This document shows positions 14,676 to 35,021 of a stretch of DNA of 64,000 nt, piece after piece (the stretch's first letter is position 1; each line of letters opens with the position of its first letter). The stretch lies in the NCBI RefSeq assembly GCF_056712565.1, contig NZ_CM160072.1; one strand, given 5' to 3'. The notes below the pieces were generated by a model. That model was not told the origin of the DNA and ran no database searches. It saw nothing but the letters and a program-made list of their open reading frames with translations. A program made the translations under genes and the position numbers.

Positions 14676-14712
14676 GCTATCAGCAAAAATCACCAAGCAG
14701 CAAAAAACCATA

Positions 14713-14740: not shown

Positions 14741-14782
14741 TATCATGAGCTATCATAACGACGCAACAAAGCGCACAATATG

Positions 14783-14806: not shown

Positions 14807-14863
14807 GACTTTCATGTACATTGCTTTATGTACACACCCATATTCGATATTCAGGTATTCGCA

Positions 14864-17250: not shown

Positions 17251-17469
17251 ATGACAGCACACAAGCCAGCATCATCAGCTATCCCAACAACTGGATACAT
17301 CCGTCGCTTTCGCATGCCGGAATTGCTAGGTGTTTCACTGCCTACTATTGATAGATGGGTTAAAAATGGCACTCTTCCACGCCCAGTGAAGCTAACAGAT
17401 AACGTGACTGCGTTTGATGCGGTGGAAATTAATAACTGGCTGGCAGAACGCCGAAACACATCAGCCTGA
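17251..17469 (+). CDS. alpA: AlpA-family phage regulatory protein / excisionase-like HTH protein
   Basis: 72-aa ORF; RFRMPELLGVSLPTIDRWVKNGTLPRPVKL is the typical AlpA/Xis-type HTH signature. Confidence 0.8.
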   Translation: MTAHKPASSAIPTTGYIRRFRMPELLGVSLPTIDRWVKNGTLPRPVKLTDNVTAFDAVEINNWLAERRNTSA

Positions 17470-17543
17470 TTAAATGACTACGGGGGATGACGTTCAACCC
17501 CACCAGCAAACAAAAGTAACTTAATTTAATAGCAGGTGTTTTT

Positions 17544-19528: not shown

Positions 19529-19696
19529 CGATCCGAACGTTACAGAAAGAAAAAGCGCCCCGTTGCTGGATAACAGGCAAAACAAAGGCGACCGGGATAG
19601 GTCGCCAGTGGGAACAAAGGAAATCAAACGCATCGCCAACAATGCCAGATTTGCGGCTGGTGGGCAATGTGATCAGTGTGCTGGCTTGCTGGTGGG

Positions 19697-19894
19697 CTAT
19701 TCCTGCTCTTTAGCATCGCCATACTGCGATGTTTTCCAGGTATGCGATCCCATTTTTGTGCGCCTGTACTCTTTTAAGAACTTCTCAAGGACAAACGCAC
19801 ATGGCGCAAATCTTTCCTGTTCTTGTTCGCTTACCGCATTTTTGCGTTGTTTTTTCCTGGATGAGGATAATTTCTTTAATGATTTGTCAGTCAT
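19697..19894 (-). CDS. small hypothetical protein (65 aa), tandem paralog 1, C-terminal ...GDAKEQE
   Basis: Same length and C-terminal KEQE tail as neighbouring ORF; 3-prime DNA similarity (tcctgctcttt); leftward, divergent from the replication operon. Confidence 0.45.
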   Translation of the reverse strand: MTDKSLKKLSSSRKKQRKNAVSEQEQERFAPCAFVLEKFLKEYRRTKMGSHTWKTSQYGDAKEQE

Positions 19895-19951
19895 CGTAGA
19901 TACCTGTAACCCTGTGCGCCACAGTTCACCGCACCACGGCGCTGGTGATGG

Positions 19952-20149
19952 TTACTCCTGCTCTTTGGCCTTCCGGCGCTGTTCATATTTTAATTTGCGT
20001 CCACAGGCATCTAAGACCCATGCGGAAAAATTAGCACTAGGATTAGTTAATTTTTCTTGTTCAACACTGGCATCAATCCCATCTATAAGCTCGTGCGGGA
20101 ATCGAATATTTTTCTTTGCTGATTTGTTGTTTGTGTTTCCGCTAGACAT
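19952..20149 (-). CDS. small hypothetical protein (65 aa), tandem paralog 2, possible DNA-binding regulator
   Basis: MSSGNTNNKSAKKNIRFPHELIDGIDASVEQEK...; adjacent to palindromic operator-like sites at 20178..20257. Confidence 0.45.
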   Translation of the reverse strand: MSSGNTNNKSAKKNIRFPHELIDGIDASVEQEKLTNPSANFSAWVLDACGRKLKYEQRRKAKEQE

Positions 20150-20177
20150 TGGTACACCTCACTTAAATGGATTTGAT

Positions 20178-20257
20178 GGGCGCACACAATACAGCAAAAA
20201 AAGTGAGAAGTTAAGTATTGACATGTGCGCACACATGATTTTAATCTGTGCGCACAG
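20178..20257. promoter_or_regulatory. operator-like region: three copies of palindrome TGTGCGCACA (core 20224..20233; perfect 12-bp palindrome ctgtgcgcacag 20246..20257; half-site copy 20178..20188)
   Basis: Read directly; palindromes bracket a near-consensus promoter. Confidence 0.6.
20218..20245 (+). promoter_or_regulatory. candidate sigma70 promoter of the rightward replication operon (TTGACA, 16 bp, TTTAAT)
   Basis: Perfect -35 hexamer at 20218..20223; -10-like tttaat at 20240..20245; overlapped by operator palindromes. Confidence 0.45.
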
Positions 20258-20354
20258 TTTGGGTTGCATTGCTCAAATTAAGCAACGCCCCGCAGTGCTC
20301 GCAACACATGCAGGGCGTCTAACCACCAACGATAGAAAGCGTATCGAGGTAGCT

Positions 20355-20558
20355 ATGTTAAATCATACCACACACCCGCAAGGGCGGGACTCGCACAACC
20401 TGAATAAATACATCTGGCGTTTTATCGCCCTGAGCACCGCACAACCACGCGTAATACACATCGAGGCCGCCAGCGAACAGGAAGCCCGTCAGCAATCCCC
20501 GGCTGGCTGCGTGATGGTATTTACTGCCCGCATCCGTCAGGGGGAATACTATGCGTGA
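20355..20558 (+). CDS. possible small ORF (67 aa) downstream of switch promoter; stop overlaps start of next gene
   Basis: ATG at 20355 in the frame of a long, otherwise implausible ORF-track ORF; translational coupling (ATGCGTGATGA) to the 85-aa gene. Confidence 0.25.
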   Translation: MLNHTTHPQGRDSHNLNKYIWRFIALSTAQPRVIHIEAASEQEARQQSPAGCVMVFTARIRQGEYYA

Positions 20559-20808
20559 TGAACGATTTATTCTTCTGGAGCAAAAATTCAGTGAAGCGCC
20601 AAAAAATGAAATTGATGCTCTTTTGCATATCGCGAATATGCTAAAAGTAGCAACGTTCCTTATAGTTTCGAATCTGGAGCATGAAACGGCGTTAGATATA
20701 CTGAACAGTGCTGTCGATTATTCTGAATATATTGCCGAGGATAAATACAGGCAATTACCAGATTTGTTAGCCCATAAATATAAAGAAGAACCTCACACCG
20801 GGAAATAA
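20551..20808 (+). CDS. hypothetical protein (85 aa)
   Basis: ORF in operon context upstream of replication gene. Confidence 0.45.
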   Translation: MRDERFILLEQKFSEAPKNEIDALLHIANMLKVATFLIVSNLEHETALDILNSAVDYSEYIAEDKYRQLPDLLAHKYKEEPHTGK

Positions 20809-20810
20809 AC

Positions 20811-21113
20811 ATGAAGAAGATTAAATTTACTGGCTTAAATGCCAGCGGACAGACTCACCCGAAAATCAGGATCGGGGATATTTTCCGGGATAAATATGGT
20901 GACAGCGTGGTTATTAATTCCGTGTATGAACGGCACATTACATACCGCCGCGCAGGGTACGACTATGACTGTGTGATGCCCGTTCATCAGTTCCGGCGTG
21001 ATTTTTCACTGGTATGTGCAGTACCACGCAGTAAGCCCACCAGTAAAGAGAAAGCACGGGCAAATATTCAGGTAATAAAGAACATGATTAACGCATTCAG
21101 GGGCAAGAAATGA
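20811..21113 (+). CDS. hypothetical protein (100 aa)
   Basis: ORF tightly packed between 85-aa ORF and replication gene (overlap ATGA at 21110). Confidence 0.45.
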   Translation: MKKIKFTGLNASGQTHPKIRIGDIFRDKYGDSVVINSVYERHITYRRAGYDYDCVMPVHQFRRDFSLVCAVPRSKPTSKEKARANIQVIKNMINAFRGKK

Positions 21114-23236
21114 AACGCGCACCGAATTTAAAGCACCAGCCGAAAGACAAAATGACGGAGGTGATTATCTTTGCGGGTAGTGATGCCTGGGCACATGCGA
21201 AAGAGTGGAGCGAATGGGCCGGAAAGCATATTGCGGCAGATGATACACATCCAGTTATTCTTGGACCGGAACAACTGGCGAGTCTGGCAGACACGCAAAT
21301 CATCGACAAAGGGCGCTATTACGTGCGCGTTTATCGTGCTGGTGAAATATCAGAGCAGCACCTTACACAGATAGCGACACTGCTTGCAGTGGCGGGTGTG
21401 AAGGAGGCGCGTTGCTACCGCAGCTTTGTTGATCAGCAGCCGGAGGACTGGACACCGCGCATGGCTGGACTGAAGGATGATGCGGAACGCGGTAACAGTC
21501 TGGTGATCAACCTTCCGGCGAAGACAAATTTCACCGGAAATTATGATGACGAATTAAAGCCTCGTGTTGAAAGTCGCGTCGATGGTGTTTTCTGGGTAAC
21601 GCCCAAAGTGGACAAGCAGTCAGGCGAAATTATCCGGCCTGAGACGTGGTTATGTTCTCCGCTTGAACTACTGGGAACAGGAACAATCGGCAAAGAGCAT
21701 TACCGCGTGATGCGCTGGAAAAAACCAGCAAACCATGAGGTCATTACAATGGCGGTCCCGTGCGGAGGCATTGGTGACCGTGACGGCTGGCGGTTGCTGA
21801 AAGACCACGGCCTTAACGTGACGACCAACGGCAAATACAGGGCTATCCTGGCTGACTGGATGCAGTTAAGCGGAAACCATGAGGAATGGCAGTTAAGCAC
21901 AACAACGGGGTGGCATTTTGGTGCGTACATCATGCCGGATGGTTCGGTCATTGGTGAATCAGAGAAACCCATCCTGTTTACCGGAAAAACTGCCGCTGTT
22001 AATGGCTATTCCGTGGCGGGAACAGCGGAGGGCTGGCGCGATACCGTGGCACGGCTGGCTGGTGGTAATCCGTCCATGATGCTGGGTGTGGCGGTATCGC
22101 TATCCGCACCATTAATCGGGCTGGTGGGTGCTGACGGCTTCGGGGTTCATCTTTTTGAGCAATCATCAGCAGGTAAAACCACCACACAGAACATTGCATC
22201 AAGTTTATGGGGAGAGCCGGACGCGCAACGGCTGACCTGGTACGGAACGGCGTTAGGTATCGCCAACGAGGCCGAAGCACATAATGACGGGCTGTTACCC
22301 CTGGATGAAATAGGCCAGGCCGGAAACGCGCGGGAGGTGTCCACGTCAGCCTATACGCTGTTTAACGGTTCCGGGAAATTACAGGGGGCGAAGGACGGCG
22401 GCAACAGGGAGATAAAACACTGGCGCACGGTGGCAATCAGCACCGGAGAAATGGACGTTGAAACATTCCTCAAAACGGAAGGGATAAAAATTAAAGCGGG
22501 GCAGCTTGTCCGTCTGCTTAACGTGCCGATGGAAAAGGCATCGCAGTTTCACGAATACAGCACCGGAAAGGCGCACGCAGACGCGTTAAAAGATGCCTGG
22601 ACAGAAAATCACGGGGCGGCAGGTCGTGAGTGGGTTAAATGGCTGGCAGGTCACCAGCAGGAGGCAAAGGACGCGGTAAGGGCATGTCGCGAGCGGTGGC
22701 GCAACCTGATACCGGAGAGCTACGGCGAGCAGGTTCACCGTGTGGGGGAAAGATTCGCCGTACTGGAGGCCGCGCTTGTGCTTTCCGGTCATGTTACAGG
22801 CTGGGATGTTCAGGCGTGCCGTGATGCAGTTCAGCATAACTTTAATGCCTGGGTGAAGGAATTCGGCACGGGCAACAGGGAATTTAAACAGATGGTTGAA
22901 CAGGCTGAGGCGTTTTTGTCGTCGTTCGGGTTCAGTCGATACCTTCCCTATCCAAACAGCGACGAGCGTGATTTACCGATTAAAGACCTTGCCGGATACA
23001 GAAAGGGGAGTATCAGAAACGAAGATGACGAGTTCCGTTTTTACACGTTCCCGCATGTGTTTGAGGGTGAGATAGCACAGGGATTTAATCCGTCTCACTT
23101 TGCCCGCGCGTTGAGTGCTGCCGGAATGCTGGAAGCGGGAGGCGACCGCCGTTACAAGAAAAAGGCGCTCGGCAGGATTGGCGGGAAGCAGCATATTTTT
23201 TACGTGCTGATGTTCCAGCCTGAAGCAGAAGATTAA
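21110..23236 (+). CDS. putative replication initiator: primase/helicase-like protein with P-loop motif (possibly DUF927-type)
   Basis: 708-aa ORF; P-loop-like FEQSSAGKTTTQ; followed immediately by iteron-like repeats and ssb. Confidence 0.55.
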   Translation: MKRAPNLKHQPKDKMTEVIIFAGSDAWAHAKEWSEWAGKHIAADDTHPVILGPEQLASLADTQIIDKGRYYVRVYRAGEISEQHLTQIATLLAVAGVKEARCYRSFVDQQPEDWTPRMAGLKDDAERGNSLVINLPAKTNFTGNYDDELKPRVESRVDGVFWVTPKVDKQSGEIIRPETWLCSPLELLGTGTIGKEHYRVMRWKKPANHEVITMAVPCGGIGDRDGWRLLKDHGLNVTTNGKYRAILADWMQLSGNHEEWQLSTTTGWHFGAYIMPDGSVIGESEKPILFTGKTAAVNGYSVAGTAEGWRDTVARLAGGNPSMMLGVAVSLSAPLIGLVGADGFGVHLFEQSSAGKTTTQNIASSLWGEPDAQRLTWYGTALGIANEAEAHNDGLLPLDEIGQAGNAREVSTSAYTLFNGSGKLQGAKDGGNREIKHWRTVAISTGEMDVETFLKTEGIKIKAGQLVRLLNVPMEKASQFHEYSTGKAHADALKDAWTENHGAAGREWVKWLAGHQQEAKDAVRACRERWRNLIPESYGEQVHRVGERFAVLEAALVLSGHVTGWDVQACRDAVQHNFNAWVKEFGTGNREFKQMVEQAEAFLSSFGFSRYLPYPNSDERDLPIKDLAGYRKGSIRNEDDEFRFYTFPHVFEGEIAQGFNPSHFARALSAAGMLEAGGDRRYKKKALGRIGGKQHIFYVLMFQPEAED

Positions 23237-23260
23237 CTTCCCTGTGTGAGGTAAAAAGTT

Positions 23261-23383
23261 GCGGGTTATGCGGGTTATCCTGTGCATAAGTTAATTAACT
23301 GCATGATTAAAAAGGAAATCAATAACCCGCACGTAACCCGCAAAACGGCAGTTATAACCCGCAAATGTGCGATTGTAACCCGC
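23261..23383. repeat. iteron-like cluster 1: two direct GCGGGTTAT copies (23261..23278) plus four inverted (A/G)TAACCCGC copies (23322..23383); candidate origin
   Basis: Read directly from sequence; between the replication protein gene and ssb. Confidence 0.7.
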
Positions 23384-23446
23384 AAAATTTCACTGTAAGA
23401 GTGTAAACAAGCGTAACTATCACGTTAAAACCGGAGAACAAACAGC

Positions 23447-23869
23447 ATGACGGCGCAAATATCAGCTTACGGGCGGCTGGTGGCTGACCCGCAGTTAAAG
23501 ACCACCAGCAAGGGCACACAAATGGCGATGGCGAGTATGGCGGTCCCCCTTCCATGCAATCAGGCAGATGACGGAACGGCGACGATGTGGTTATCCGTCC
23601 TGGCGTTTGGCAGACAGGCCGACGCACTGGCAAAACACCACAAAGGCGAACTGGTGAGCGTGGCGGGTAACATGCAGGTAAGCCAGTGGACAGGCCAGAA
23701 CGGCGAAACGCGGCAGGGCTGGCAGGTTATCGCAGACAGCGTAATCAGTGCGAGAACGGCGCGACCGGGCGGCAAAAAAGGCCAGCAAGGGCAGGCTACT
23801 GACGCACTGAACAGGGCAAAACAACAGGCGGGTAACGACGATCCGTACGGGGACGGGATACCGTTTTAA
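23447..23869 (+). CDS. ssb: single-stranded DNA-binding protein (SSB)
   Basis: 140-aa ORF with OB-fold-like N-terminus, Gly/Gln-rich linker and acidic C-terminal tip ...DDPYGDGIPF typical of SSB. Confidence 0.75.
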   Translation: MTAQISAYGRLVADPQLKTTSKGTQMAMASMAVPLPCNQADDGTATMWLSVLAFGRQADALAKHHKGELVSVAGNMQVSQWTGQNGETRQGWQVIADSVISARTARPGGKKGQQGQATDALNRAKQQAGNDDPYGDGIPF

Positions 23870-23905
23870 TTCACAACAGCGAACAGAGTAATTACAGGGG
23901 AAGGC

Positions 23906-24403
23906 ATGACAAAGCTGACCATAAACAGAAAACCGAAGGGCATTTACGGCACGCCGCAGAAAACAGCACAGGCGGCGCAGCAGCAGAATAAAACCACATC
24001 GGCGCATAAAGTGATGCCAGATAACCAGAACACACAGCAGAAGCTCACAGGAGCAACACCGCGGCGGCGTATGACCAAACAGCAGCGTAAAAACCGCAGA
24101 CGCGTTAACCGTCTTATTGAGCTATGGCCTGAATTATTCAGCCCGGAATCACCTAAGCCGCTTAAGGTGGGGATATTTGACGACCTGATACAGGATATTG
24201 CCGCGAGAGGTATTTCACTCGGACAGGGAACACTACGCGCAACGCTGGCGCGTTATGTGCAGACTCCGCGCTATTACCGCGCCCTGGTAGCTGGTGGCGC
24301 GCGTTACGACCTGAAAGGCCAGCCGTGCGGCGAGGTAACACCACTACAACAGACGCACGCAGGAAAACTACTGGAGGAGATGAATGGAAATAGTAAGAAA
24401 TGA
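23906..24403 (+). CDS. FinO/ProQ-domain RNA-binding protein
   Basis: 165-aa ORF; [82 protein letters not shown] matches the FinO/ProQ N-terminal domain pattern (PLKIGI...LR.AL..YT.S..YL....GA.R.DL.G...G.V). Confidence 0.7.
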
Positions 24404-24800
24404 TCACGCACATGGTCGCCGTGCAGGTGATCACATTGTGGATGAAATGGCGGAAAAACAAAGAGTTGACATTATTGTCAGTGTCACAGTCGAGAGCGCG
24501 AAGCGCCAAAATAAGCGTATAAATGATCGTTCAGATGTACATGGTGTGATCACTCGTTTACGCCAGACTTTTGTAACTCGTGAAGAGATGATTGAAGCTA
24601 TTGACCAGCATACAGCATGTATCAGCGTCAGGGATATACCGGAGGTCATTGCTAACTACTTCATGATCACCAGACGCCTTTACCGGAGAAAAGACAAGAG
24701 CACGGTTAACCGTCTCCTGATGTCTGATATTCGCGAATACCTGCAAGAAAGGGGCTATGTGAATCCACCAGAACAGCGCTACGGAAGAGTCGGAGGCTAA
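24384..24800 (+). CDS. hypothetical protein (138 aa), start overlaps FinO-like gene
   Basis: ORF with 20-bp overlap with upstream gene; no family recognised. Confidence 0.4.
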
Positions 24801-25166
24801 CTAAAACCCTGTACCGAAGAGCGGCGGCGCGATGGGGTGAAGTAATGCAGTTGGGAAACTGATAAGGAACGGTATTACATATCAATGCGACGACTGGAAT
24901 GTTCCAGGAAGGCACAGAGGCCACCGAAGCAACCGGATAATTTAGAAGACCTGAAACGGTCGCTTAAACGCACTGAAAAAGAAATGGGGATAGATGGGAT
25001 CGGGAAATCAGTATGGCGTAACTACCAGAAGTAAGCACAGAGCCGGAGCAATCCGGCTTTTTTTGGGGCTGAAATCAATCAATCTGTTTTTGTGATAGAA
25101 ATATGTTTATCTACCACTTTTTCAGATCAATAATGTGCATAGTTTAGTCAGTAAGAGGAAATTGCT

Positions 25167-25373
25167 GTGAATTGTATTAACGACCTGAACACAGGCGATG
25201 TCAGAGGTGGTTCCGTTCATCTGGATGCACAGACCGTGATGCGCATTAAGCAGTACAGAATCGACCATGTGAACAATCACCCTGATCAGCCATTACCAGG
25301 CGTGGCGCAGATTGTCAGACATGCCGTAAACGCCTGGCTTAATCAGAATGGTTTTGCATCGGGGGGTGAGTAA
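25167..25373 (+). CDS. small hypothetical protein (68 aa) upstream of large-protein operon
   Basis: ORF only; GTG/ATG start ambiguous. Confidence 0.3.
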   Translation: MNCINDLNTGDVRGGSVHLDAQTVMRIKQYRIDHVNNHPDQPLPGVAQIVRHAVNAWLNQNGFASGGE

Positions 25374-25469
25374 TGAATCGCTGGTACAGCATCAAAGCAG
25401 AGGGACGCCAATGTTATCTAACTCAGGTTTTATGAATTCTGACTCCCGATTCAAAATAGGAGGTTACTA

Positions 25470-28001
25470 ATGCCAGTCGTACCAACAGTATCCGGACGTC
25501 AGGTTGAGAGCCGTGGAGTTCAGTCAGCAGGCTTGCAGACGTTTTCTCAGCCAGGTATTAGTGATGCTTTTGTTCGTGCAGGAGCAGAGGCAATTGATGT
25601 TCTGGGTCAGGCAAAACAGCGTGCCAATATTGCCTTGGTTCAGGAGGCATCCCTTAAACTCAGTCAGACAGGCAGTGATCTGCTGAATAATCCTGAAACA
25701 GGATTGCTTAACCTGAAAGGGAAAAATGCTATTGGAAAAGGCCATGAGTATACGCAGCAGTTTGATGCTCAGGTCGAACAACTGGCTATGTCGCTGCCGG
25801 ATGAACAGGCCCGTAATGCTTTCATGCAGCAGGCACAGCAGCAGCGCATTCAGTTCACTACGCAGGCCGGGCGGTACGAGATCGGGCAAATAAATGCCTA
25901 CGAAGAAGGCCAGTTTCAGGCTACGCTGCTGAACAATGGTAAAAATGCCGCAGCATTGTATGGCGACAACGCCGCATACGTATTGGCTAATAAGCAAACT
26001 TTCCAGCAAATTGAGGAGTACGGCATTGCGCATGGCTGGAGCGACGAGCAGATTCGGGCCAGGAAAATCGAGTTTAAAGAAGCAACAGCAAAAGCAACTG
26101 CTCAAAATGCTATTGGAGCAAACTATCTTCAGGTAAGACAGCAAAACGGCGAGTTAAGCGATACTGCTGCTGGAGCTCGCCGTGCTGTAGCAGATAGTGG
26201 ATCTTCCGATCGTACCCGCGGTATACGCAACAATAACCCCGGCAATCTTGAATACAGCAAAACTAATCCGTGGGTTGGGCAGACTGGTGATGATGGTCGC
26301 TTTGCTAAATTCGAAACACCTGAACACGGTATTCGTGCATTAGGGCGGAACCTGATGTCGTATCAGCGGCAGGGTATTGATACCGTCAGCGAGATAATTA
26401 ATCGCTGGGCACCGCCTACTGATAAAAATGACACTATGTCGTATATCAAAGCAGTGTGCGAACAACTTGGCGTTTCTGCTGATGATCCTATAGATGCATC
26501 TAATCCGGATACCCTGAAGGCGCTTTGTGCAGCCATTATCCATCATGAAAACGGTAGCCAGCCATACAGTGATCAGCAGTTAACTGCAGGTGTTAGTGCT
26601 GCGCTGGGGCTTTCTCAGCTACCGACAAAAAATAAACGTTATACCGGTGTAGCCTGGTTCGATGCTTTAAGTGAATCGGATCAGGCCAGCGTGTTGCGAC
26701 AGACTGATGCACTAGCCAGACAACAGCAGGCTGAATATAAAACGATGCTCGACAGCCAGGTTCGCGATGCGACAGCTGCGTATATGCGTGGCGTTGAATT
26801 TCCTAACCCACCAGGTGAGGCTGATTTTATTGCAGCTTATGGCGTCAGAGAAGGAAACCTGCGATATACCGAGTTCAGAAATACGCAGATCGCCGGACAG
26901 TATATAGGCTCTTTCCGCAACATGCCGACAAGCAGCATTACCGCATATGTTGAGCAATTGCGCCCGGATACTGGTGAAACAGGGGAGGGGTATGCGTCTC
27001 GTGCGAAGTTATTCGACCGGGTATCGGCGGCAGCCACGAAGGTAATAACCCAGAGGCAGAATAATCCGTTTAGTGCAGCGGTGGAAATCGGAGCCTATAA
27101 GCCGATCACCAGCAACAACCCTGACGACATCACTGCCGAGGTGGCTAACCGTTTCTCGTCGCAGGAAAGCTTACGCGCGTTGGGAATTAATGCCCCAATC
27201 CTCAACAGTGAAGAGGCGGCTGCGCTGGCACAGCAGGTGCGCGGCACTCAAAACGTTGACCAGACAATTAAACTGTTGCAGAGCATGGGGGAAAAGCTAC
27301 CTGCGCCAGCAATACGGCAGGTGGCATCTGTAATTGCTCCGAACAGTGCAGCAACAGCCTATTCTGCGCTGCTGCTGGGCACGCCGGATAATCAGTACGA
27401 TAACACCAGGCCGTCGATCCCATATAGTCAGTTCATCGGGTATAAGCCGACGATGAACAAGTACGACGTTGCAAAGGTTATTCTTTCCGGTGACCAACTA
27501 CTGAATCCGACGAAGGCTATGAAGAATGCGGGCATAACTCCGGTACAGTTGCCGAGCGAAGATAAAATGAAGCGCGCTTTCGACGAACAGGTTGGTAATG
27601 CATTTGCCCGTAACCCAGAGACGCGCCAGATCAGTTATAGCCTTTTCAAAGCCGCTTACGCAGGAATCGCTTATCAGTCTGGTAATGCGTCTATGACGAG
27701 CACAGATGCGGTTAACTCCGATGTGGCGGAGAAAGCTGCGCAGTACGCAACAGGCGGTGTATACAAGAGATTTAATGGTGGTGATGTTGTAATGCCTTTC
27801 GGCATGGATGAATCCACTTTCAAAGATCGCTATACCACATCAGCGAAACAAGCACTGAAAGATGCCGGACTTAACGTAAATGCAGTGTCAAACTTCACAC
27901 CAGTTAATATCGGCAATAACCGGTATCGGCTGGTAAATGGTAGCGGACGCTGGGCAACAGATCCCAGAACCAATGAAGCTATTGTCGTGAGGGTTGAATA
28001 A
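25470..28001 (+). CDS. large hypothetical protein A (843 aa), Q/A-rich, with conserved central segment GIRNNNPGNLEYSKTNPWVGQ...WAPPTDKNDT...HHENG
   Basis: Strong SD (aggagg) 8 nt upstream of ATG; stop overlaps next start (TAATG). Composition resembles phage internal virion / ejection or polyvalent proteins; no family confidently assigned. Confidence 0.6.
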   Translation: MPVVPTVSGRQVESRGVQSAGLQTFSQPGISDAFVRAGAEAIDVLGQAKQRANIALVQEASLKLSQTGSDLLNNPETGLLNLKGKNAIGKGHEYTQQFDAQVEQLAMSLPDEQARNAFMQQAQQQRIQFTTQAGRYEIGQINAYEEGQFQATLLNNGKNAAALYGDNAAYVLANKQTFQQIEEYGIAHGWSDEQIRARKIEFKEATAKATAQNAIGANYLQVRQQNGELSDTAAGARRAVADSGSSDRTRGIRNNNPGNLEYSKTNPWVGQTGDDGRFAKFETPEHGIRALGRNLMSYQRQGIDTVSEIINRWAPPTDKNDTMSYIKAVCEQLGVSADDPIDASNPDTLKALCAAIIHHENGSQPYSDQQLTAGVSAALGLSQLPTKNKRYTGVAWFDALSESDQASVLRQTDALARQQQAEYKTMLDSQVRDATAAYMRGVEFPNPPGEADFIAAYGVREGNLRYTEFRNTQIAGQYIGSFRNMPTSSITAYVEQLRPDTGETGEGYASRAKLFDRVSAAATKVITQRQNNPFSAAVEIGAYKPITSNNPDDITAEVANRFSSQESLRALGINAPILNSEEAAALAQQVRGTQNVDQTIKLLQSMGEKLPAPAIRQVASVIAPNSAATAYSALLLGTPDNQYDNTRPSIPYSQFIGYKPTMNKYDVAKVILSGDQLLNPTKAMKNAGITPVQLPSEDKMKRAFDEQVGNAFARNPETRQISYSLFKAAYAGIAYQSGNASMTSTDAVNSDVAEKAAQYATGGVYKRFNGGDVVMPFGMDESTFKDRYTTSAKQALKDAGLNVNAVSNFTPVNIGNNRYRLVNGSGRWATDPRTNEAIVVRVE

Positions 28002-30061
28002 TGTCTGATGTTTTTTCTTTGGCTCCAGAAGGTCAGGCATGGATTGACGACAAAACAGTTGCCAACCCAGCAAGGCCAGAAGACTACGATCCGACTCCCT
28101 TCCAGGGTTCAGGTACTGCACTTTTGAGCGGCGTGGCGGAGGGGGCTCTCGGTCTCGCGCAGTCTGCCGTCGGATTCAGCAAGCGCCTGATTAGCGATCC
28201 GGCATTTACCGCAGACGTGGCACCGACTGTTAATATTTTTCGGGAGATGTTCCCTGATGCTGACAAAACACTGAATGATACATACGACACGATCGGAAAA
28301 CAGTTACAGGATGCCCGCAGCTATGTGAAGCCTGATGCAGGCAGTCAGGGAATGGCGGCTGAGGTATTAAATGAGCTTGGTAAATTTGTTCCTGCAATCG
28401 GAACAACTATGTTTGGCGGTCCCCTCATCGGCGCTGCTACAGCTTTCAGTTCTACGTATGAGCAGTCCTATCAGGATTTTAAAGGGAAGGGAGTAGACGA
28501 GGCTACGGCGCGTAACCTGGCAACGCAGCAAAGCCTTTTCAATGCTGTGGGTATGGCCTTACCCGCTGCCGTCGGCACCACACTGGCAACGCGCATTGCC
28601 TCAGGTGTGGCAATCAACACCGGATTCGGTGGACTGAACCGTTACTCTGTCGGCGCAACACTGGAGGAAAAAGGCTACACGGAGATGGCAAAACAGTACC
28701 GGGTATTTGACGGTCAGGCGATGTTAGTCGATGCCGTTTTAGGCGGGGTCTTTGGTGGCGTTCATCACCTGACTACCCATAATAACCATGATGGTACAGA
28801 GTCGAACATTTCTGCAGAAGAAATAAAATCAACTTTTGGTGAACATTATCAGCAATCTCCTGATGGTAACATTGAGTCAATGGTTCGTGATTTATCTGAT
28901 TCAGGAGTAATAGAACTTATTAATGAACCAGCAATAAAAAATAGTGATGGAGAAATACTTCTGAATAAAGGTCATGTGACAGTAGCTTCTGGAAAAGAAC
29001 CAATAATAAGAATAAATATTAATGGATTAAAAGATCATGAAGAACTGTTAGAAACCCTTCATCACGAGGCGCTTCATCTTGAGCAGCGCCATTACCCTGA
29101 CTGGAAGGCCAGAAAGCTAGCTAATGCTGTACTTAAATCTGCAAACAAGCATTCTGACTATCCTGAATTTGCATATGGGATGTCACAATATTATGAATAT
29201 AAGAAAAGGGGTGAGTACCCTGAAACATATCCTGAGTGGTTGTACGCTGAAGAAGTTGCCGCACATGCAGTAAATCCATCTCTAAAGACAAGCGTTTCAT
29301 CATGGGAAAAAATTATTTCAGGTTTTAAAGCCTATATATTCAGATACAGTGGTATTCAGGTTGGAACCGTTACACCTGAGCAGTTACGGTTACTCGTAAG
29401 TATGCGTCTTCGCAATATGAAACTGGAAGCCGCAGTCGAAAAAGTTTTTGGTATCCGGGCAAGGGAAAGAATAAAACCAAGCGATATTGATGCAGCCCAC
29501 ATTTTGAATGAGGGGCTTCATTACGATATTGAATCGTCACCAGTGCTTCACACCAGCAATGAGAGCATCAACAGCCATGTTGACGCCATGGATGAAGCAT
29601 ACAGGCAACTTAATGATGGTCAGCCTGTAAATGTTGGGGGGATGGCGCGAGGGCTTGATGGTCCATTGCGATCAGATATATCTGATACTTACCAAGAGCA
29701 ATACCATGAAATACAAAAGGTTTTTGAAGAAAATGGTGTCAGATATGAAACATCATCAGAGCCAATTAGTGAATCGCCTGTCCCTCGTGCTGAAAGTGCT
29801 TTCTCATCGGCTGGTGAACACAGAGGGGACGTCAGCGTTGATCCAGATACAGGGCAGGTTCTCTCATCCAACAGCTATGACCTTATGGCTGCCAGAGACA
29901 TGGCTGTTGCCAATCCTGAGCTGACTATAGCTCACCCGGAAACCGGAAACCCGACAAAACTTTCTGATCTCCTGGCTGAGTTGGATGAACAGATTAAGAC
30001 AGTCCAGAACGAATCGAAGGTTTATTCTGTAGCGGCAGCGTGCTTCTTGAGGAACCCATAA
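28001..30061 (+). CDS. large hypothetical protein B (686 aa) with glycine-zipper-like hydrophobic N-terminal region and HExxH zinc-metallopeptidase motif (LHHEALHLEQRH)
   Basis: Translationally coupled on both sides; HEALH motif encoded within a conspicuously AT-rich segment (about 28790..29350). Confidence 0.6.
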   Translation: MSDVFSLAPEGQAWIDDKTVANPARPEDYDPTPFQGSGTALLSGVAEGALGLAQSAVGFSKRLISDPAFTADVAPTVNIFREMFPDADKTLNDTYDTIGKQLQDARSYVKPDAGSQGMAAEVLNELGKFVPAIGTTMFGGPLIGAATAFSSTYEQSYQDFKGKGVDEATARNLATQQSLFNAVGMALPAAVGTTLATRIASGVAINTGFGGLNRYSVGATLEEKGYTEMAKQYRVFDGQAMLVDAVLGGVFGGVHHLTTHNNHDGTESNISAEEIKSTFGEHYQQSPDGNIESMVRDLSDSGVIELINEPAIKNSDGEILLNKGHVTVASGKEPIIRININGLKDHEELLETLHHEALHLEQRHYPDWKARKLANAVLKSANKHSDYPEFAYGMSQYYEYKKRGEYPETYPEWLYAEEVAAHAVNPSLKTSVSSWEKIISGFKAYIFRYSGIQVGTVTPEQLRLLVSMRLRNMKLEAAVEKVFGIRARERIKPSDIDAAHILNEGLHYDIESSPVLHTSNESINSHVDAMDEAYRQLNDGQPVNVGGMARGLDGPLRSDISDTYQEQYHEIQKVFEENGVRYETSSEPISESPVPRAESAFSSAGEHRGDVSVDPDTGQVLSSNSYDLMAARDMAVANPELTIAHPETGNPTKLSDLLAELDEQIKTVQNESKVYSVAAACFLRNP

Positions 30062-32817
30062 TGAAACAGGCATGTGTTGAAGCTATTGCGCAGACACTTG
30101 GTCGCCAGCCAAAGGCTGATGAGCTGAAAAATATCGAAGATCGTATCAAAGAAGCAGTGCAACATGTGCACAGAAAGAATGCAAAAGAAGGCAAAAGTGG
30201 TATTCCTGATGCTCAAACATACATGGATGCTGCAGAACTGGTACGCCAGCGTGTGGTTCATGATGTGTACAAGAAAAGACAGCGTGTTGCCCAGAATGCG
30301 ATCGCCATCAGTAAAATTACTGACACTCTCGATGCTAACATCCCGCCTGATCAGCAGACACCTGTTAATTTGCAGCAGTTTATTTTTGCTGGCCGACGAT
30401 CGAGAGACAAAGCTGATATCTCCGTTGCTTCTGCTGAAGAGCTTGCAATTGGGGCATATCAGGACTGGTCCCGTCAGCTCAGTGCTGAACTTCTAAAAGC
30501 AGGTGATGACGTCCGCAAATTCTTCGAGCAGAGCAGGGCGCTTGGAGAGCAGCGGTTTCGGAGTGTATTCGACAGGCAGGCGGCAAAGTCTGCACAACTC
30601 CAGATCCTGAAAGAAATTTATGGCGAAGATACCGGGAATCCCCTGGCGAAGAAAATTGCACAGATTTGGAAGGATGTAACAGGCCGTGTTCGTCATGAGA
30701 TGAACGACAACGGCTTTGACATAGGCCTGCGAGAAGACTGGCATACGCCATATGTGGATGATGCTGACCTTATTCGCAATGCCGGGCGCGAAGAATGGCT
30801 GGCATCGTTACCAGTGGCAGAGCAAGCTACAGCACGTCTTTCAGGTCGCCAGCCACCGATTGAGTTTGCCCGCCAGAAATGGGTTGATGACGCTTACAAC
30901 ACGCAGGATCGCAGCAATTACGTTAATCCTGACGGCAGCATTATGAATGACGTCGAGTACCGTCAGGCACTGGAAGCGATCTTTGAAACGAAGGCCACTG
31001 ATGGGGCAAACAAAATTGAGCCCGGTACATTTATGGGAGCCGGAGGAATAAAGAGCCGTGGTTCTCAGCACAGGGTGATGGCGTTCAAGGATGCGCAGTC
31101 ACACTTCGCCTATATGGAGCGATACACTCAGCAGCCGCTGGTGGGGGTGATGATGTCGCACCTGCAATCATCATCCAGGGATTTGGGCGTCGTTAAAGCC
31201 TTTGGTCCGGACGCCGAAAGAAACTTTTCCCTGGTACTGGATCGCATCTATAAGCGCGCAGTAACAGGCGGGAAACGCAAAAAAGAAATGGAGGATGAGG
31301 CCAAATTAGTAGCCCGTATGTTCAACTCAATGGCTGGCCTAAATGGTGTCGCTTCATCGAGTGTGTTCTCTTCAGCTGTTGGTGGTCTGCGTAACCTGAT
31401 GACCAGCGCCATGCTTGGCACCAGCGTACTGACAGCAACCAGCGACCAGGCAATTATGCGGGCAAATGCGCAGGCGCTGGGCTTTACCCGTGGTGGAATG
31501 CGGCTTTCCGTTAACACTATCAAAAACCTGTTTAGTGGAGATGCCAAAAAGGCGAATGCTGAACTCGGTCTGCTGGTGGATTCACATGCTGCTGTGGTTT
31601 CGAAAATGGGCGGGTTTGACTTGTCTCGCGGCATAACTGGCTGGTTCGCAGAGAAGACACTGAAGTGGTCCGGGCTGATCGCTATGGACCGCGCAAACAA
31701 AGCGTCGTTTGGTCTCCTGATGTACAAAAACATTGGCGAGCTGACCAGAAAATTTAAGACGCTGGACGATATGAAAGGAACCGATAAAACCATTCTGGCT
31801 AACAAGGGATGGAGCAATGAGGACTGGGCCATCATGGCAGCGGCAGAACTCAGGCCGATGACTACTGCCGGGCATATGGGGATGACGCCAGACGCGATTT
31901 ACGCTGTGCCCGATAACGTAATCGCCGACATTATGGCAGACCGTATTACCCGGATTCGTGCCGGGAGTGAAAAGGCACTGGCAGCACTTGGAGATCTCCC
32001 TCCAGAACGCCTGAAACGGATGAAAGAAGCATTCGACGCTGAGGCTGAGCAGACCATCACGCGCATGATTCGTAATGCACGCGCTGAAGCAGCCCATAAA
32101 TTGCTGGGAATTACGCACGGTGAGATGACCAATGCTGTGACCACCGCTACGGGTATTGATACATATGCCCGTGATGATGCTGGCGAGTTAATGAAGAGCT
32201 TCATGCTCTTCAAAACAACCCCATTTGCTGGATTTCGGCAACTTGTTAACAGAACACGGGATTTGGACACCGTTCCGGCCATTAAATTTCTGGCCTCATA
32301 TATCGGGGGAACAACTCTTGCTGGTATGTTTGCGATCCAGATGAACAGTTTGTTAAATGGTAATGATCCGCTGGATATGACAAAACCAACCACATGGGTT
32401 CAGGCTTTACTGAAAGGTGGTTCGTTCGGTATCTACGGTGATTTTATTTTCCAGGACCATACGCAATATGGCTCCAGCATCGGTGCCACTATGGGTGGCC
32501 CTGTGTTGAGCTTTGCAGAGCAGTTAACAAAATTACTGATTACTAACCCACAGAAGGCTCTACAGGGTGAAGAAACATCATTCGGTGCCGATGCACTGAA
32601 AACAGCCCGCATGATCACCCCATTCGCAAACCTGTGGTATGCGAAAGCGATAACCAATCACCTGATATTGCAACAACTTCAGGAGATGGCAAACCCTGGT
32701 TACAATGATCGAGTAAGGGACCGCGCGCAACGGGAGTTCGACATAACGAGTTGGTGGGAACCGGGTGCTATTGCGCCACGTAGAGCACCGGATTTTGGAA
32801 AGGCGGTAGGGGAATGA
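30061..32817 (+). CDS. large hypothetical protein C (about 918 aa)
   Basis: ATG at 30061 overlaps stop of protein B (TAATG); ORF track offers an upstream GTG at 30040. Stop overlaps start of the next small ORF (ATGA). Confidence 0.6.
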   Translation: MKQACVEAIAQTLGRQPKADELKNIEDRIKEAVQHVHRKNAKEGKSGIPDAQTYMDAAELVRQRVVHDVYKKRQRVAQNAIAISKITDTLDANIPPDQQTPVNLQQFIFAGRRSRDKADISVASAEELAIGAYQDWSRQLSAELLKAGDDVRKFFEQSRALGEQRFRSVFDRQAAKSAQLQILKEIYGEDTGNPLAKKIAQIWKDVTGRVRHEMNDNGFDIGLREDWHTPYVDDADLIRNAGREEWLASLPVAEQATARLSGRQPPIEFARQKWVDDAYNTQDRSNYVNPDGSIMNDVEYRQALEAIFETKATDGANKIEPGTFMGAGGIKSRGSQHRVMAFKDAQSHFAYMERYTQQPLVGVMMSHLQSSSRDLGVVKAFGPDAERNFSLVLDRIYKRAVTGGKRKKEMEDEAKLVARMFNSMAGLNGVASSSVFSSAVGGLRNLMTSAMLGTSVLTATSDQAIMRANAQALGFTRGGMRLSVNTIKNLFSGDAKKANAELGLLVDSHAAVVSKMGGFDLSRGITGWFAEKTLKWSGLIAMDRANKASFGLLMYKNIGELTRKFKTLDDMKGTDKTILANKGWSNEDWAIMAAAELRPMTTAGHMGMTPDAIYAVPDNVIADIMADRITRIRAGSEKALAALGDLPPERLKRMKEAFDAEAEQTITRMIRNARAEAAHKLLGITHGEMTNAVTTATGIDTYARDDAGELMKSFMLFKTTPFAGFRQLVNRTRDLDTVPAIKFLASYIGGTTLAGMFAIQMNSLLNGNDPLDMTKPTTWVQALLKGGSFGIYGDFIFQDHTQYGSSIGATMGGPVLSFAEQLTKLLITNPQKALQGEETSFGADALKTARMITPFANLWYAKAITNHLILQQLQEMANPGYNDRVRDRAQREFDITSWWEPGAIAPRRAPDFGKAVGE

Positions 32818-33155
32818 AAAAGTTAAATACACCAACCAAAAGAGTTGGGGGGCTTCTGATTGTCATTGGAATTATATTTATACTTGCATCTATAATAGAA
32901 ATATCAAGTAATGAGTTTGCTATTTCTGATAGTCCATATTATCGATCGCTAAATGCATATGATATTATTTTTATGTATTTAGAGCGAATTACAGATACTT
33001 TCATCATGACTCTAACATTTCAAACATGGAGTAGCCGTTTCAGTATATTAATGTTAGTAGGGTTTTGTTTATTTATTGTTGGTGTTCTTATTTCATATTT
33101 TTACGATGCTGGAATTGGCAGGGTTGTTAAGTGGATAAGAACGGGTAATTGGTGA
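32814..33155 (+). CDS. small hydrophobic protein (113 aa, two predicted TM segments), AT-rich gene
   Basis: Start ATG overlaps stop of protein C; hydrophobic stretches GLLIVIGIIFILASII and FSILMLVGFCLFIVGVLISYF; markedly lower GC than flanks. Confidence 0.5.
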   Translation: MKKLNTPTKRVGGLLIVIGIIFILASIIEISSNEFAISDSPYYRSLNAYDIIFMYLERITDTFIMTLTFQTWSSRFSILMLVGFCLFIVGVLISYFYDAGIGRVVKWIRTGNW

Positions 33156-33237
33156 TTATAAGCAAGCTATTGGTTTCATTGTTTATATCGTTGTCGGAAC
33201 TTTTTCAACTGACAGCAATCATAGCCGGGCTTGAATC

Positions 33238-33528
33238 GTGGTGGGGATTGCACTGGATAATTGCAGCCCCATTGCTTTCATCGTGAGCTATATTCCATTT
33301 GTTGGAGCGATTGTTGGTATGGTTGGCGCTATGGATGTATGGTGTTGGGAGTGGTGGCAGGCTGGCCTTCTATTCTTTGGTGGATCATCTTTGCTATTGT
33401 CAGCGGTGGAATGTCATCATTTTTCGAATGGCTATCATTCAGAAAAAGAGCGTGACATGTCACAGGCCGCTTTCGCGGCCTTGTTTTTAACGAATGCCAC
33501 CGCCGCCCGGGCGGGAATCCGCAGATAA
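33238..33528 (+). CDS. possible small membrane protein (96 aa); reading frame uncertain (three overlapping ORFs)
   Basis: Hydrophobic segments; alternative frames 33261..33455 and 33299..33490 also open. Confidence 0.3.
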   Translation: MVGIALDNCSPIAFIVSYIPFVGAIVGMVGAMDVWCWEWWQAGLLFFGGSSLLLSAVECHHFSNGYHSEKERDMSQAAFAALFLTNATAARAGIRR

Positions 33529-34156
33529 AAAAGCCCGCTGCACGGTTTTATTAATACTTATACCATTAGGATTGATCCTTCAATGGACAATCCTTCCATC
33601 GTGTGGCCAGCCATTCATATTCTTTGTCTTTTCTTCAGTACCGGCTTTGCATCTTCTACACCCTGAAAGATGTCGTTTTATGGTGTATCTGATGATTTAT
33701 TCCCTAACAATAGATATTCGAAAAATTAATCAGTTAAAACAATTATTTGGATAATTTCAGGTAAAAACTATCTTAATCTTCTGGTGGATCTCAATGCGCC
33801 GTGACGGTATCGGGATTAAGGGCGTGGATATTCGCGATATATGCCGCTACACCCCTCAACAGTAATAGATATGCGCTTTTCACGCTCTCCTTTCACTGCT
33901 GAGAACGGCAACAACGTGCCACAGGAACGCGCTGTAATCGATTCTGACGCACTTAATTGCGTTGGGTAATGGTTTGCCAGCCTGTGGGGGTAACTCTGTT
34001 TTATGAGGCTTTGGCTATAGTGCAAAAATGCACTTTGTCTTGCCTCTCAATTTGATGAGACTGGAACGACAACAGGACAGACCACCAGCAACAGTTACCG
34101 TATTCAGCCGTTCTGTGGCACCAGTGGAACTATCCACCCCTGCTTTCAGCAATGTG

Positions 34157-34311
34157 TTTGCGGGTTATTTTGGGGCGTTTGCGGGTTATTTGGGATGTTT
34201 TGCGGGTTATGCGATGCTTGAATAATGAACAGTGCATTTTGCAACATATTGATACTAAAGAACAAAAAATAGTTAGCACACTAAGATAACCCGGTAACCC
34301 GCATAACCCGC
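34157..34311. repeat. iteron-like cluster 2: three direct TTTGCGGGTTAT copies at 21-bp spacing (34157..34210) plus three contiguous inverted TAACCCG(C/G) copies (34286..34311)
   Basis: Read directly; same 9-mer as cluster 1, about 11 kb away near the right end of the element. Confidence 0.7.
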
Positions 34312-34695
34312 ACTGTTTTGTATATATATACGAAAAATTGCATTCAGGAGGGGGGATCGAAATCCCTACAACCCATTGCTTATGGGACCGCCGCCTCGTC
34401 AAATTTTTACACCCGCGAAATAAAAAATACTTCACGCTGGTGGGCATGATGCTGATATGAGAGGCTTCCATAACGCCACCATTCGAAACTATGCAAATCT
34501 GCATAGAAAAGGGGATGCCTGATACAATACCCTCGCCCGATAAAATCACACCGATAAACTCATCTGCCACGAGTAGAAAGAGCGAACGAACCCGATACGC
34601 AGTAATGCTGGTCGGGTCCAGCTTTTTAAGGCGGCTGTAGATATCAGGCCATCCGTGATCATCCACCAGCGTAATTGCTGAACGCTTTAAAAAAA

Positions 34696-34719
34696 CGTGT
34701 ACATAAGGGTGTACATAAT
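34696..34719. repeat. right boundary repeat of integrative element (putative attR or arm-type sites): cgtgtacataagggtgtacataat
   Basis: 22 of 24 identity with 14783..14806, direct orientation. Confidence 0.6.
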
Positions 34720-34960
34720 CAAAAACCGCATTAGAAAGAAACCAGATACAATGCGGCATTGAAGCCAACACTCTACAAACAGATCCAGAACATTGAATAA
34801 CTCGTAACGCCAATTCTTCCTTTTCAGCCTTCACAAATGCCGCCCACTCAAACAGAGCGGCATTTTTCCTCCCCGCAACATTCAATTCTGTTTTGCGTGC
34901 CTGCTCCAGATTTTGCGATGTTTTTTTGCCCAGCGCAGTGAGAACGTGAGATACTCACAA

Positions 34961-34976
34961 CTGTATATAAACACAG
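34961..34976 (+). promoter_or_regulatory. LexA (SOS) box of dinD: CTGTATATAAACACAG
   Basis: Matches CTGT-N8-ACAG consensus, 46 bp upstream of dinD start. Confidence 0.8.
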
Positions 34977-35021
34977 TTGTAAACTTACTTTCCTTGCAAT
35001 CGATATCATATGGAGTGGGCA

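Follow-up and report, generated by a model that had tools for sequence, protein, structure and literature searches.

The window considered here, i.e. the whole stretch of 64,000 nucleotides (nt) from contig NZ_CM160072.1 (NCBI RefSeq assembly GCF_056712565.1), is a piece of Escherichia coli chromosome which carries, between the core genes yicC and dinD, a mobile element of 19.9 kb, and the subject of this work is an operon of three large genes of that element, here called A, B and C, whose products appear to be ejection proteins of a podovirus. Together with two small open reading frames (ORFs), D and E, the genes occupy positions 25470–33528 (8,059 bp), a block that is 100% identical to its counterpart in O2:K1 strains of avian and extraintestinal pathogenic E. 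coli (APEC and ExPEC) and that makes up about 40% of the element, since the 24-bp direct repeats which delimit the latter enclose 19.9 kb. In its layout the operon is as the original prediction, a reading of the letters alone, had described it: the share of the element and the three reading frames are borne out (843, 686 and 918 amino acids (aa), the last one from an ATG, while a reading of 925 aa from a GTG upstream of it is possible), and so are the AGGAGG Shine-Dalgarno sequence, 7 nt 5' of the ATG of A, and the overlaps by which the genes are chained, GAATAATGTCT (TAATG), CCATAATGAAA (TAATG) and GGGGAATGAAA (ATGA) at the successive junctions. The features of this part of the element are the following.

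25402–25469, plus strand: left breakpoint of the putative cassette, with the 3' remnant of a gp14 gene, a spacer and the Shine-Dalgarno sequence; homology to podoviral prophages starts here
25459–27004, plus strand: left homology arm with E. coli epsilon15-like prophages (96.5% nt identity to the prophage of strain B20123, L009)
25470–28001, plus strand: gene of protein A, homologue of epsilon15 gp15, a predicted muralytic internal virion (ejection) protein, mosaic
26211–26678, plus strand: predicted lysozyme-fold peptidoglycan hydrolase domain of A (aa 248–403), from PDB sequence matches
28001–30061, plus strand: gene of protein B, homologue of epsilon15 gp16 (predicted ejection protein), middle replaced
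28814–29437, plus strand: orphan insert of B (aa ~272–479), which includes the motif HEALH and is absent from epsilon15 gp16
30061–32817, plus strand: gene of protein C, homologue of epsilon15 gp17 (internal virion protein (IVP) family IVP-D, T7 gp16 class)
32814–33155, plus strand: ORF D, 113 aa, two hydrophobic segments, ATGA-coupled to C, in a variable slot for small membrane proteins
33143–33525, plus strand: right homology arm (92.5% nt identity to the stretch that follows gp17 in the B20123 prophage)
33238–33528, plus strand: ORF E, frameshifted remnant of the gene of a 98-aa membrane protein, inside the right homology arm
33464–33481, plus strand: terminator-like hairpin (AGGCCGC-TTTC-GCGGCCT followed by a run of T), inside E and at the operon's end

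No significant domain was found by Pfam in A, B or C, and NCBIfam gave nothing for A to E, for an ORF upstream of the block (ORF U, 68 aa) or for a further 138-aa ORF of the element; it is because both collections are silent that RefSeq labels the genes as hypothetical. The claim of the original prediction that the proteins belong to no recognisable family fails, and the candidate novel cargo system built on it is not upheld, as each of them has an end-to-end match in PHROGs (A, phrog_992, E 2e-298; B, phrog_1145, E 2e-136; C, phrog_684, E 5.5e-295) and a close homologue in the Salmonella phage epsilon15. Protein C is 88.9% identical to gp17 over 918 aa (tblastn, phage genomes), and for the whole of A the identity to gp15 is 80%. 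In B, identity to gp16 is 83% over the N-terminal 281 aa and 74% over the C-terminal 207 aa, with a middle part that cannot be aligned. The genes of gp15 (842 aa, epsilon15 coordinates 12141–14669), gp16 (634 aa, 14669–16573) and gp17 (16573–19329) follow one another in the phage as A, B and C do in the element, their stop and start codons overlapping in like manner. In DNA comparisons, similarity of the element to epsilon15 is confined to 25469–28770 and 29470–32817, that is from one base 5' of the ATG of A to the stop of C, minus the middle of B.

In the classification of Hardies et al. (PMC4819975), epsilon15 gp17 is of the IVP-D family (the class of T7 gp16), gp15 and gp16 together take the IVP-C position, gp14 is IVP-B and the preceding acetyltransferase IVP-A. 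In general, internal virion proteins are packed within the capsids of podoviruses and are ejected to form a DNA conduit across the cell envelope (PMC8954989). By comparison of their sequences, A, B and C are shown to be homologues of gp15, gp16 and gp17 and hence predicted members of this well-defined family of virion proteins, in agreement with the guess of the original prediction that their style recalls internal-virion or ejection proteins, and the annotation of the three genes should read internal virion/ejection proteins instead of hypothetical. The setting of a phage morphogenesis operon, in which these genes come after tubular tail B, IVP-A and IVP-B, is missing: no homologue of gp12, gp13 or gp14 was found in the element, and of the gp14 gene about 68 nt of the 3' end are left. 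The prophage genes to which positions ~25402–25459 are similar are annotated at this place (3' end) as "virion core protein, T7 gp14 family", and because the podoviral similarity begins under the 3' end of gp14, the left breakpoint lies inside this gene.

Protein A contains a block (RTRGIRNNNPGN...HHENG) which had been described as conserved-looking; this part of the description stands, but not the lack of a family, as the block corresponds to aa 248–403 and is recognisable by its match to the Enc34 endolysin's catalytic domain (PDB 7q47_A, E 3e-17) and to Gp29 (PDB 9vvp_L, E 2.6e-38). The fold and the enzymatic activity of the Enc34 endolysin have been described (PMC8943055), and the matches show A to carry a predicted muramidase domain with a lysozyme fold. 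The same PDB sequence searches with B and C returned nothing useful.

The remainder of the element was annotated mainly from RefSeq and PHROGs, and its features, all 5' of the block except for the right-hand repeat, are given below.

14783–14806, plus strand: attL core CGTGTACATAGAGGTGTACATAAT, a 24-bp direct repeat directly after yicC
14864–16132, plus strand: tyrosine integrase (RefSeq annotation of the identical locus; phrog_1 integrase, E 1.6e-64)
17251–17469, plus strand: AlpA-family helix-turn-helix (HTH) regulator (Pfam Phage_AlpA PF05930, independent E-value 6.9e-6; phrog_66)
17544–19528, plus strand: Rha-like regulator and AntA/AntB and BRO-N antirepressors (RefSeq names; PHROG anti-repressor families)
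20355–21113, plus strand: Icd-like protein, small ORF and DUF4222 protein (RefSeq)
21110–23236, plus strand: DUF927 replicase of the primase/helicase family (phrog_1139 DNA primase, E 2e-174)
23447–24800, plus strand: single-stranded DNA-binding protein, ProQ/FinO-family protein and 138-aa ORF (RefSeq)
24809–25034, plus strand: PerC-family regulator, annotated as frameshifted (RefSeq pseudogene)
25167–25373, plus strand: ORF U, 68 aa, backbone gene 5' of the morphogenesis slot (phrog_4934, E 1e-31)
34696–34719, plus strand: attR core, partner of attL, with dinD next

The att repeat, CGTGTACATA(GA/AG)GGTGTACATAAT, has 24 bp with 2 mismatches between its copies, which lie 19,913 bp apart. Between the integrase and the AlpA-family gene a 216-aa protein is encoded, and just 5' of the latter, at 17135–17170, there are two copies of TT(T/C)TTTCAATAGATT at a spacing of 21 bp that may be operator- or iteron-like. 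The set of Icd-like protein, small ORF and DUF4222 protein recurs in EcCIMP1, a phage-inducible chromosomal island (PICI) of E. coli MP1 to which we return at the end, and in other E. coli islands. The regulatory genes seem to occupy a variable slot too, to judge from a related satellite in strain 22-250 (L004), where a gene of the GIY-YIG nuclease family (7797–8573 of that locus) stands in place of AntA/AntB and the BRO-N gene is frameshifted. The matches of the ProQ/FinO-family protein to the NCBIfam ProQ and FinO models are both under the curated cut-offs. The 138-aa ORF (24384–24800), which overlaps the end of the ProQ/FinO gene, matches the PHROG anti-repressor Ant (9e-27) and, weakly and in its N-terminal part, a "terminase" family (1.5e-10), while Pfam gave nothing for it; it may be a candidate for a factor of packaging specificity, and apart from this weak match no gene for redirection of packaging or remodelling of capsids was recognised in the element. 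The frameshift annotated in PerC recurs in 4 of 4 sister loci inspected (L001, L003, L004, L010) and, since the copies have diverged and yet share it, may be programmed or an artefact of annotation instead of a sign of decay. ORF U with its upstream segment (from ~25051) is found at 87–89% nt identity in many other E. coli islands directly 5' of a fusion gene of ClpP-like prohead protease and major capsid protein, so that it seems, by this comparison of sequences, to mark a common insertion slot for various morphogenesis modules derived from helper phages.

As the original prediction had stated, the element has no capsid, portal, terminase or tail genes, and lysis genes are absent likewise: tblastn against epsilon15 and the RefSeq annotation gave no terminase, portal, protease, capsid, tubular tail, tailspike or lysis gene, the matches to epsilon15 among all ORFs of the element being the integrase, an HTH protein and A to C only. 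What the element has is an integrase at one end with att repeats, an AlpA-family regulator, a replicase of its own and a small size without capsid, tail and lysis genes. It is, by this gene content, a putative satellite (14783–34719, 19.9 kb) of the Gram-negative PICI type, helper dependence having been shown only for its relative EcCIMP1, and it is not of the capsid-forming type, as none of the capsid, portal and terminase genes that define the latter are present. The "incomplete prophage" label that prophage finders give to this island should accordingly become satellite. An ordinary prophage remnant, which the original prediction had held to be the case to be expected if homology to virion proteins were found together with structural genes just outside the repeats, is rejected: the homology holds, but there are no structural genes outside the repeats, which are flanked by the core genes yicC and dinD, and the remainder of the element is a satellite backbone. 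Among ten proteins of the element submitted to PADLOC, the AntA/B protein alone was matched (PDC-S22), B, D and E having no match, and the element has no match to an Rfam RNA family, either in a scan of the window at the gathering threshold or in one of the element itself at E <= 0.1.

Protein A is mosaic. Its first 509 aa are 95–99% identical to gp15 of E. coli B20123's epsilon15-like prophage, a complete one whose tailspike is an endosialidase (dS, i.e. synonymous substitutions per site, 0.06–0.12), whereas aa 510–843 are 87% identical to gp15 of epsilon15 and only 25% to that of the B20123 prophage. When the whole element was compared with this prophage by blastn, exactly two common segments were found, which are the arms of the cassette listed above, and the two arms therefore bound a variable part made of the C-terminal third of A and of B, C and D. 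In sequence terms, such an arm-flanked layout is the one expected if satellites and phages swap the cassette by homologous recombination. The satellite of strain F11 is a case in point: it shares the accessions of its integrase, Rha, AntA, DUF4222 and DUF927 proteins with the satellite of strain 2022E04-002 (L003), its three big genes encode 837, 600 and 824 aa, and between its homologues of B and C and those of the B20123 prophage the identity is 98 and 99%, respectively; compared with the B and C of the window, this type reaches only ~25–38% identity. A near-identical backbone is thus shown, from the sequences compared, to carry a swapped allele set.

Of 5426 complete E. coli genomes, 43 have the junction between the backbone and A. 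In strain 2022E04-002 the same architecture, with the three genes intact, lies behind a different integrase at a tRNA-Gly site, and the ratio of nonsynonymous to synonymous substitutions (dN/dS) between this copy and the window is 0.15 for A, 0.07 for B and 0.15 for C, values based on few substitutions (dS 0.02–0.03 for B and C); against epsilon15, where dS is saturated, dN/dS is 0.03–0.13. A survey of IMG/VR with protein C gave 71 loci, mostly phage contigs of ~40 kb with gp12–gp14 upstream, and 5 of the 71, about half of which were scored for the replicase motif by a degenerate DNA pattern, have the replicase motif of a satellite instead of gp12–gp14. Three of these loci (L053, L055 and L063) represent a distinct satellite lineage with a replicase only 61% identical, with A, B and C intact (837, 632 and 918 aa) and gp12–14 absent; its C is 87–88% identical, and its backbone has only ~78–80% nt identity to E. 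coli genomes. The 7.3 kb of A to C are intact in all copies inspected, at two att sites and on at least three backbone lineages. These results, and the mostly synonymous divergence between the two satellite copies, argue that the cassette is maintained and not decaying.

A candidate helper is at hand in ExPEC XM, which matches the operon of the window at ~100% identity and 100% coverage and carries, adjoining yfgI, a complete epsilon15-like prophage (L012, NZ_CP025328.1 2795541–2829866) with terminase, portal, capsid, a gp14-family core protein, gp15/16/17 of the 837/600/824 type, lysis genes and a tailspike which is an endosialidase of the K1-capsule type. Strain AH19D088 likewise has both the satellite and an epsilon15-like prophage. 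The prophage of B20123 is of the same type and at the same site as in ExPEC XM, and strain CFIAFB20190172 (L005) has there an epsilon15-like prophage with a different tailspike. With the first 1.5 kb of A as the query, 396 genomes were matched, 24 records of which have two copies; a second gp15-like copy is thereby found in up to 24 of the 43 satellite genomes, as against 353 of the 5383 others (odds ratio 18), a figure which assumes that every second copy is a prophage, where two genomes were inspected, and which ignores clonal relatedness.

The two ORFs that follow C had been described as small and hydrophobic, which is sound for D but not for E. D has hydrophobic segments at aa 6–38 and 71–102 and is identical in the 2022E04-002 satellite, whereas an unrelated 104-aa ORF takes its position in the satellite of strain 22-250, and the corresponding slot of epsilon15 holds gp18, a 64-aa membrane protein. 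From ~33158 onwards, the DNA is a start-less, frameshifted copy of the gene of a 98-aa membrane protein which, in intact form, follows gp17 in E. coli epsilon15-like prophages; E is the 3' part of this copy fused to unrelated sequence, its halves matching two different PHROGs, and is on this comparison best described as a pseudogene scar of the right-hand recombination arm. The hairpin at 33464–33481 is the top-scoring terminator-like site within 24700–35000. Between this terminator and attR, a 251-aa hypothetical ORF without a PADLOC match lies on the minus strand (34130–34885) and contains, at 34156–34213, three tandem copies of ~21 bp of GTTTGCGGGTTAT...

As for B, its insert stands in place of a linker-like stretch of gp16 rich in Pro, Ala and Gln and is present in 36 of the 5426 E. 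coli genomes, at an identity of at least 99% in every copy. Neither the F11 satellite nor the satellite lineage of IMG/VR has it, the latter showing a phage-like middle in B, and for this reason it does not define the cassette. The HExxH motif that had been noticed in B is there, as a single HEALH at aa 355 (~0.05 such motifs being expected from the composition of B), but the zincin that was read from it depends on this one motif within an orphan insert. The insert had no match in a word-indexed search of 5.8 billion proteins, and phmmer against 1.84 billion representatives found nothing but a fragment of 74 aa, of which the 54 aligned residues are the same as in the query; Pfam gave nothing and a PDB sequence search nothing relevant. 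In 50,697 phage records, tblastn aligned only 59 aa of the insert, at E 2e-3, with Ralstonia-phage proteins called "DarB-like antirestriction", and these matches were treated as chance-level. AlphaFold2 run on the single sequence, without an alignment, gave an unusable model of full-length B (pLDDT, the predicted local distance difference test, of 39) and a poor one of the insert alone (57), with which Foldseek against the PDB reached at best an E-value of 0.2, to unrelated proteins. No similarity of sequence or fold to any peptidase family was thus found in Pfam, the PDB, the two large protein databases or by Foldseek, and given a low-confidence model and such fold matches the zincin idea is unsupported by anything past the motif, though not thereby refuted. 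The insert is the one piece of the block truly without explanation.

Elsewhere in the window, a 388-aa ORF and a segment of 33.6% GC (62001–63000) come after a tRNA-Sec gene (60580–60670; Rfam RF01852, 83.8 bits), and there may be another horizontally acquired segment downstream. A JUMPstart element on the minus strand at 5312–5350 (RF01707, 55.2 bits) accompanies a low-GC region (~35% GC at 1–2000), which resembles a cluster for the biosynthesis of polysaccharide or lipopolysaccharide core and is unrelated to the ejection cassette.

Taken together, the 8-kb block is probably an ejection-protein cassette of the epsilon15 podovirus type, belonging to a 19.9-kb PICI-type satellite between yicC and dinD and loaded into the capsids of its helper; of the possibilities listed in the original prediction, the first one, satellite-encoded proteins packaged into helper virions, agrees with this homology and with the apparent PICI-type context. 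When the helper, an epsilon15-like temperate podovirus, goes lytic, the satellite would excise and replicate, and A to C would be expressed within its long plus-strand transcription unit and loaded into procapsids built by the helper, from which gp13 and gp14 would come as well. The helper-like N-terminal 509 aa of A may fit or dock on the core or portal of the helper, and since the satellite has 19.9 kb and epsilon15 39.7 kb, a dimer could fill a full-size head. In the next cell, A would digest peptidoglycan while B and C would form the conduit through which the DNA of the satellite crosses the envelope. The least certain step, although it is the reading preferred here, is that a divergent set may let satellite particles enter cells whose prophage excludes ejection proteins of its own type; the set may also bring the orphan insert of B into the recipient. 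Such a bypass of exclusion is put forward, as a hypothesis only and because of the precedent of SieA of phage P22 (see below), as the reason why a satellite would keep 7.3 kb of genes that its helper already has. Going further, one may think of a distinct kind of piracy, in which enterobacterial satellites take the capsid, tail and motor of a podovirus and supply ejection proteins of their own, renewed by cassette exchange with phages, the divergent set evading prophage exclusion and the E. coli lineage co-injecting an orphan domain; this whole picture is speculative and, as a whole, we consider it somewhat doubtful.

Several points weigh against the interpretation as a loaded ejection cassette. 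The expression, packaging and ejection of A to C are all deduced from sequence, and no sigma-70-like promoter was predicted 5' of A, by a scan that found fewer such sites than in shuffled sequence. The set cannot work alone, because gp13 (IVP-A) and gp14 (IVP-B) are absent, and with the ExPEC XM prophage, whose gp16 and gp17 are only ~25–38% identical to B and C, compatibility of the core would have to be presumed. No pac-like DNA common to the element and the E. coli epsilon15-like prophage was found by blastn, and APEC E18055, an exact match to the window, has no second gp15-like copy. The small number of substitutions behind the dN/dS values and the assumptions behind the count of second copies, both given above, count here too. 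Finally, EcCIMP1 is transduced at a low rate, and its authors proposed for it a role in packaging, not in ejection (PMC11773190).

Among the other explanations, it is quite unlikely that the block is an inert passenger, i.e. a functionless fragment of a dead epsilon15-like prophage that was captured by recombination and hitch-hikes on the satellite. Its breakpoints are scarred, the left one in the gp14 gene and the right one in a gene of a small membrane protein, it is without gp13 and gp14, the annotation marks PerC as frameshifted and no promoter is predicted upstream of A, all of which would suit such a fragment. A dead fragment, however, would not be expected to keep 7.3 kb of ORFs intact in every copy inspected, at two att sites and on at least three backbone lineages, with dN/dS of 0.07–0.15 between satellite copies; the second, swapped-in allele set is intact as well, and a related backbone bears, independently, a non-homologous ejection module.

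Satellites commonly interfere with their helpers, and A to C or D might accordingly act against the helper, either as dominant-negative subunits of the virion core or by an envelope block of incoming phage DNA, an explanation that we regard as rather unlikely. D, as a small membrane protein of two segments coupled to C, would be suited to such a function, and in ExPEC XM B and C differ in allele type from those of the co-resident prophage. On the other hand, D is not conserved, unrelated ORFs being found in sister satellites, PADLOC gave nothing, and the strong purifying selection along the full length of A to C fits a structural role; the allele of the F11 satellite is not a specialised poison, because it is 98–99% identical to that of a phage. 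EcCIMP1, the one relative tested, adds to superinfection immunity in lysogens and leaves helper titres unlowered after induction (PMC11773190), which argues against a poisoning of virions. Delivery of an effector, with B as a zincin protease toxin or counter-defence effector and D and E as membrane immunity partners, is the least credible of the explanations and very improbable. It draws on the single HExxH in a 200-aa insert specific to the satellite, on the marginal tblastn match to the Ralstonia-phage proteins (E 2e-3, 59 aa) and on the intracellular enzymatic cargo domains that the internal virion proteins of other podoviruses bear, as in N4 gp50 and H66 gp60 (PMC4819975). The insert, however, has no homologue in Pfam, the PDB or the large databases, its model is of low confidence and its fold search empty, and it is absent from the F11 satellite and the IMG/VR lineage; the toxin with membrane immunity partners that the original prediction had also listed is weakened further by the state of E, a pseudogene scar, by the replacement of D in sister elements and by the empty PADLOC result.

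Known satellites either remodel the capsids of their helpers (P4, the Staphylococcus aureus pathogenicity islands SaPIs, the phage-inducible chromosomal island-like elements PLE) or make their own capsids and steal tails (capsid-forming PICIs, cf-PICIs). If the reading of the block as a loaded ejection cassette is true, a satellite bringing only the proteins inside the capsid would be a third arrangement beside these two, and selection would act at the step of DNA entry, where the superinfection exclusion of prophages operates and about which little is known for satellites. The mosaic A, with its helper-like N-terminal half, would be a natural system for finding which parts of an ejection protein must match the core of the helper. 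In the literature searched, satellites that carry and exchange ejection-protein cassettes are barely recognised.

With respect to epsilon15 itself, the likeness of the block lies in gene order, in gene sizes, in the stop/start coupling and in the predicted muralytic domain of the first protein. It differs in that the phage genes are surrounded by those of portal, capsid, tubular tail, gp13, gp14 and tailspike, which the satellite is without, in that the A of the satellite is a mosaic with the N-terminal half of an E. coli prophage, and in that the linker-like middle of gp16 has given way in B to an orphan insert of 200 aa. The cf-PICIs, which build their own capsids and take only tails, and other E. 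coli PICIs share with the present element the type of backbone and the slot 3' of the replicase and ORF U; in the island L007 this slot holds the fusion gene of ClpP-like protease and major capsid protein together with fragments of tail genes, whereas the present element, without capsid or packaging genes, has only the proteins from inside the capsid, a complementary subset.

As for exclusion, SieA, an inner-membrane protein of the P22 prophage, blocks injection that proceeds via gp16 and gp20, two of the ejection proteins, and the block is partly evaded by hybrid phages whose ejection-protein genes are foreign (PMC10461980). P22 gp7, gp20 and gp16 are like A, B and C in being, by function, analogous virion-internal proteins of a DNA conduit, and it is to them that the specificity of exclusion maps; A, B and C have no detectable sequence relation to gp7, gp20 and gp16, and no SieA homologue was identified here.

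The closest likeness is to EcCIMP1, the 19,963-bp PICI of E. coli MP1 that is excised only upon induction of the temperate podovirus Kapi1 (vB_EcoP_Kapi1) and is transduced by it (Pick, Stadel & Raivio 2025, PMC11773190). Both elements have ~20 kb, an integrase, an AlpA-type HTH protein, AntA/B, DUF4222, an Icd-like protein, a DUF927 replicase and PerC, and no capsid, tail or lysis genes; the TOPRIM/DUF927 replicase of EcCIMP1 is 62% identical to that of the window over 560 aa, and a block of virion "DNA transfer" genes lies in the same slot 3' of it. They differ in that helper dependence has been demonstrated for EcCIMP1, while for the present element it is predicted, and in the module itself, which in EcCIMP1 is of the P22/Lederbergvirus type, made of DUF2824, a small protein, a "phage DNA ejection protein" and a 906-aa protein with a transglycosylase domain, and seems to hold small assembly or core members that are lacking in the present satellite. 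With the gp16-class "DNA transfer proteins" of CUS-3, HK620 and epsilon34 the 906-aa protein has 46–52% identity, and with A no sequence similarity. The replicases being homologous and the proteins of the modules unrelated, related backbones therefore appear to bear, in one slot, non-homologous but functionally equivalent ejection modules from two lineages of podoviruses. On these sequence grounds, the element of the window is best described as a PICI of the EcCIMP1 type with a putative ejection-protein cassette of the epsilon15 type, and to read the block of EcCIMP1 and the present one both as ejection-protein cassettes gives a concrete, testable explanation of the two.

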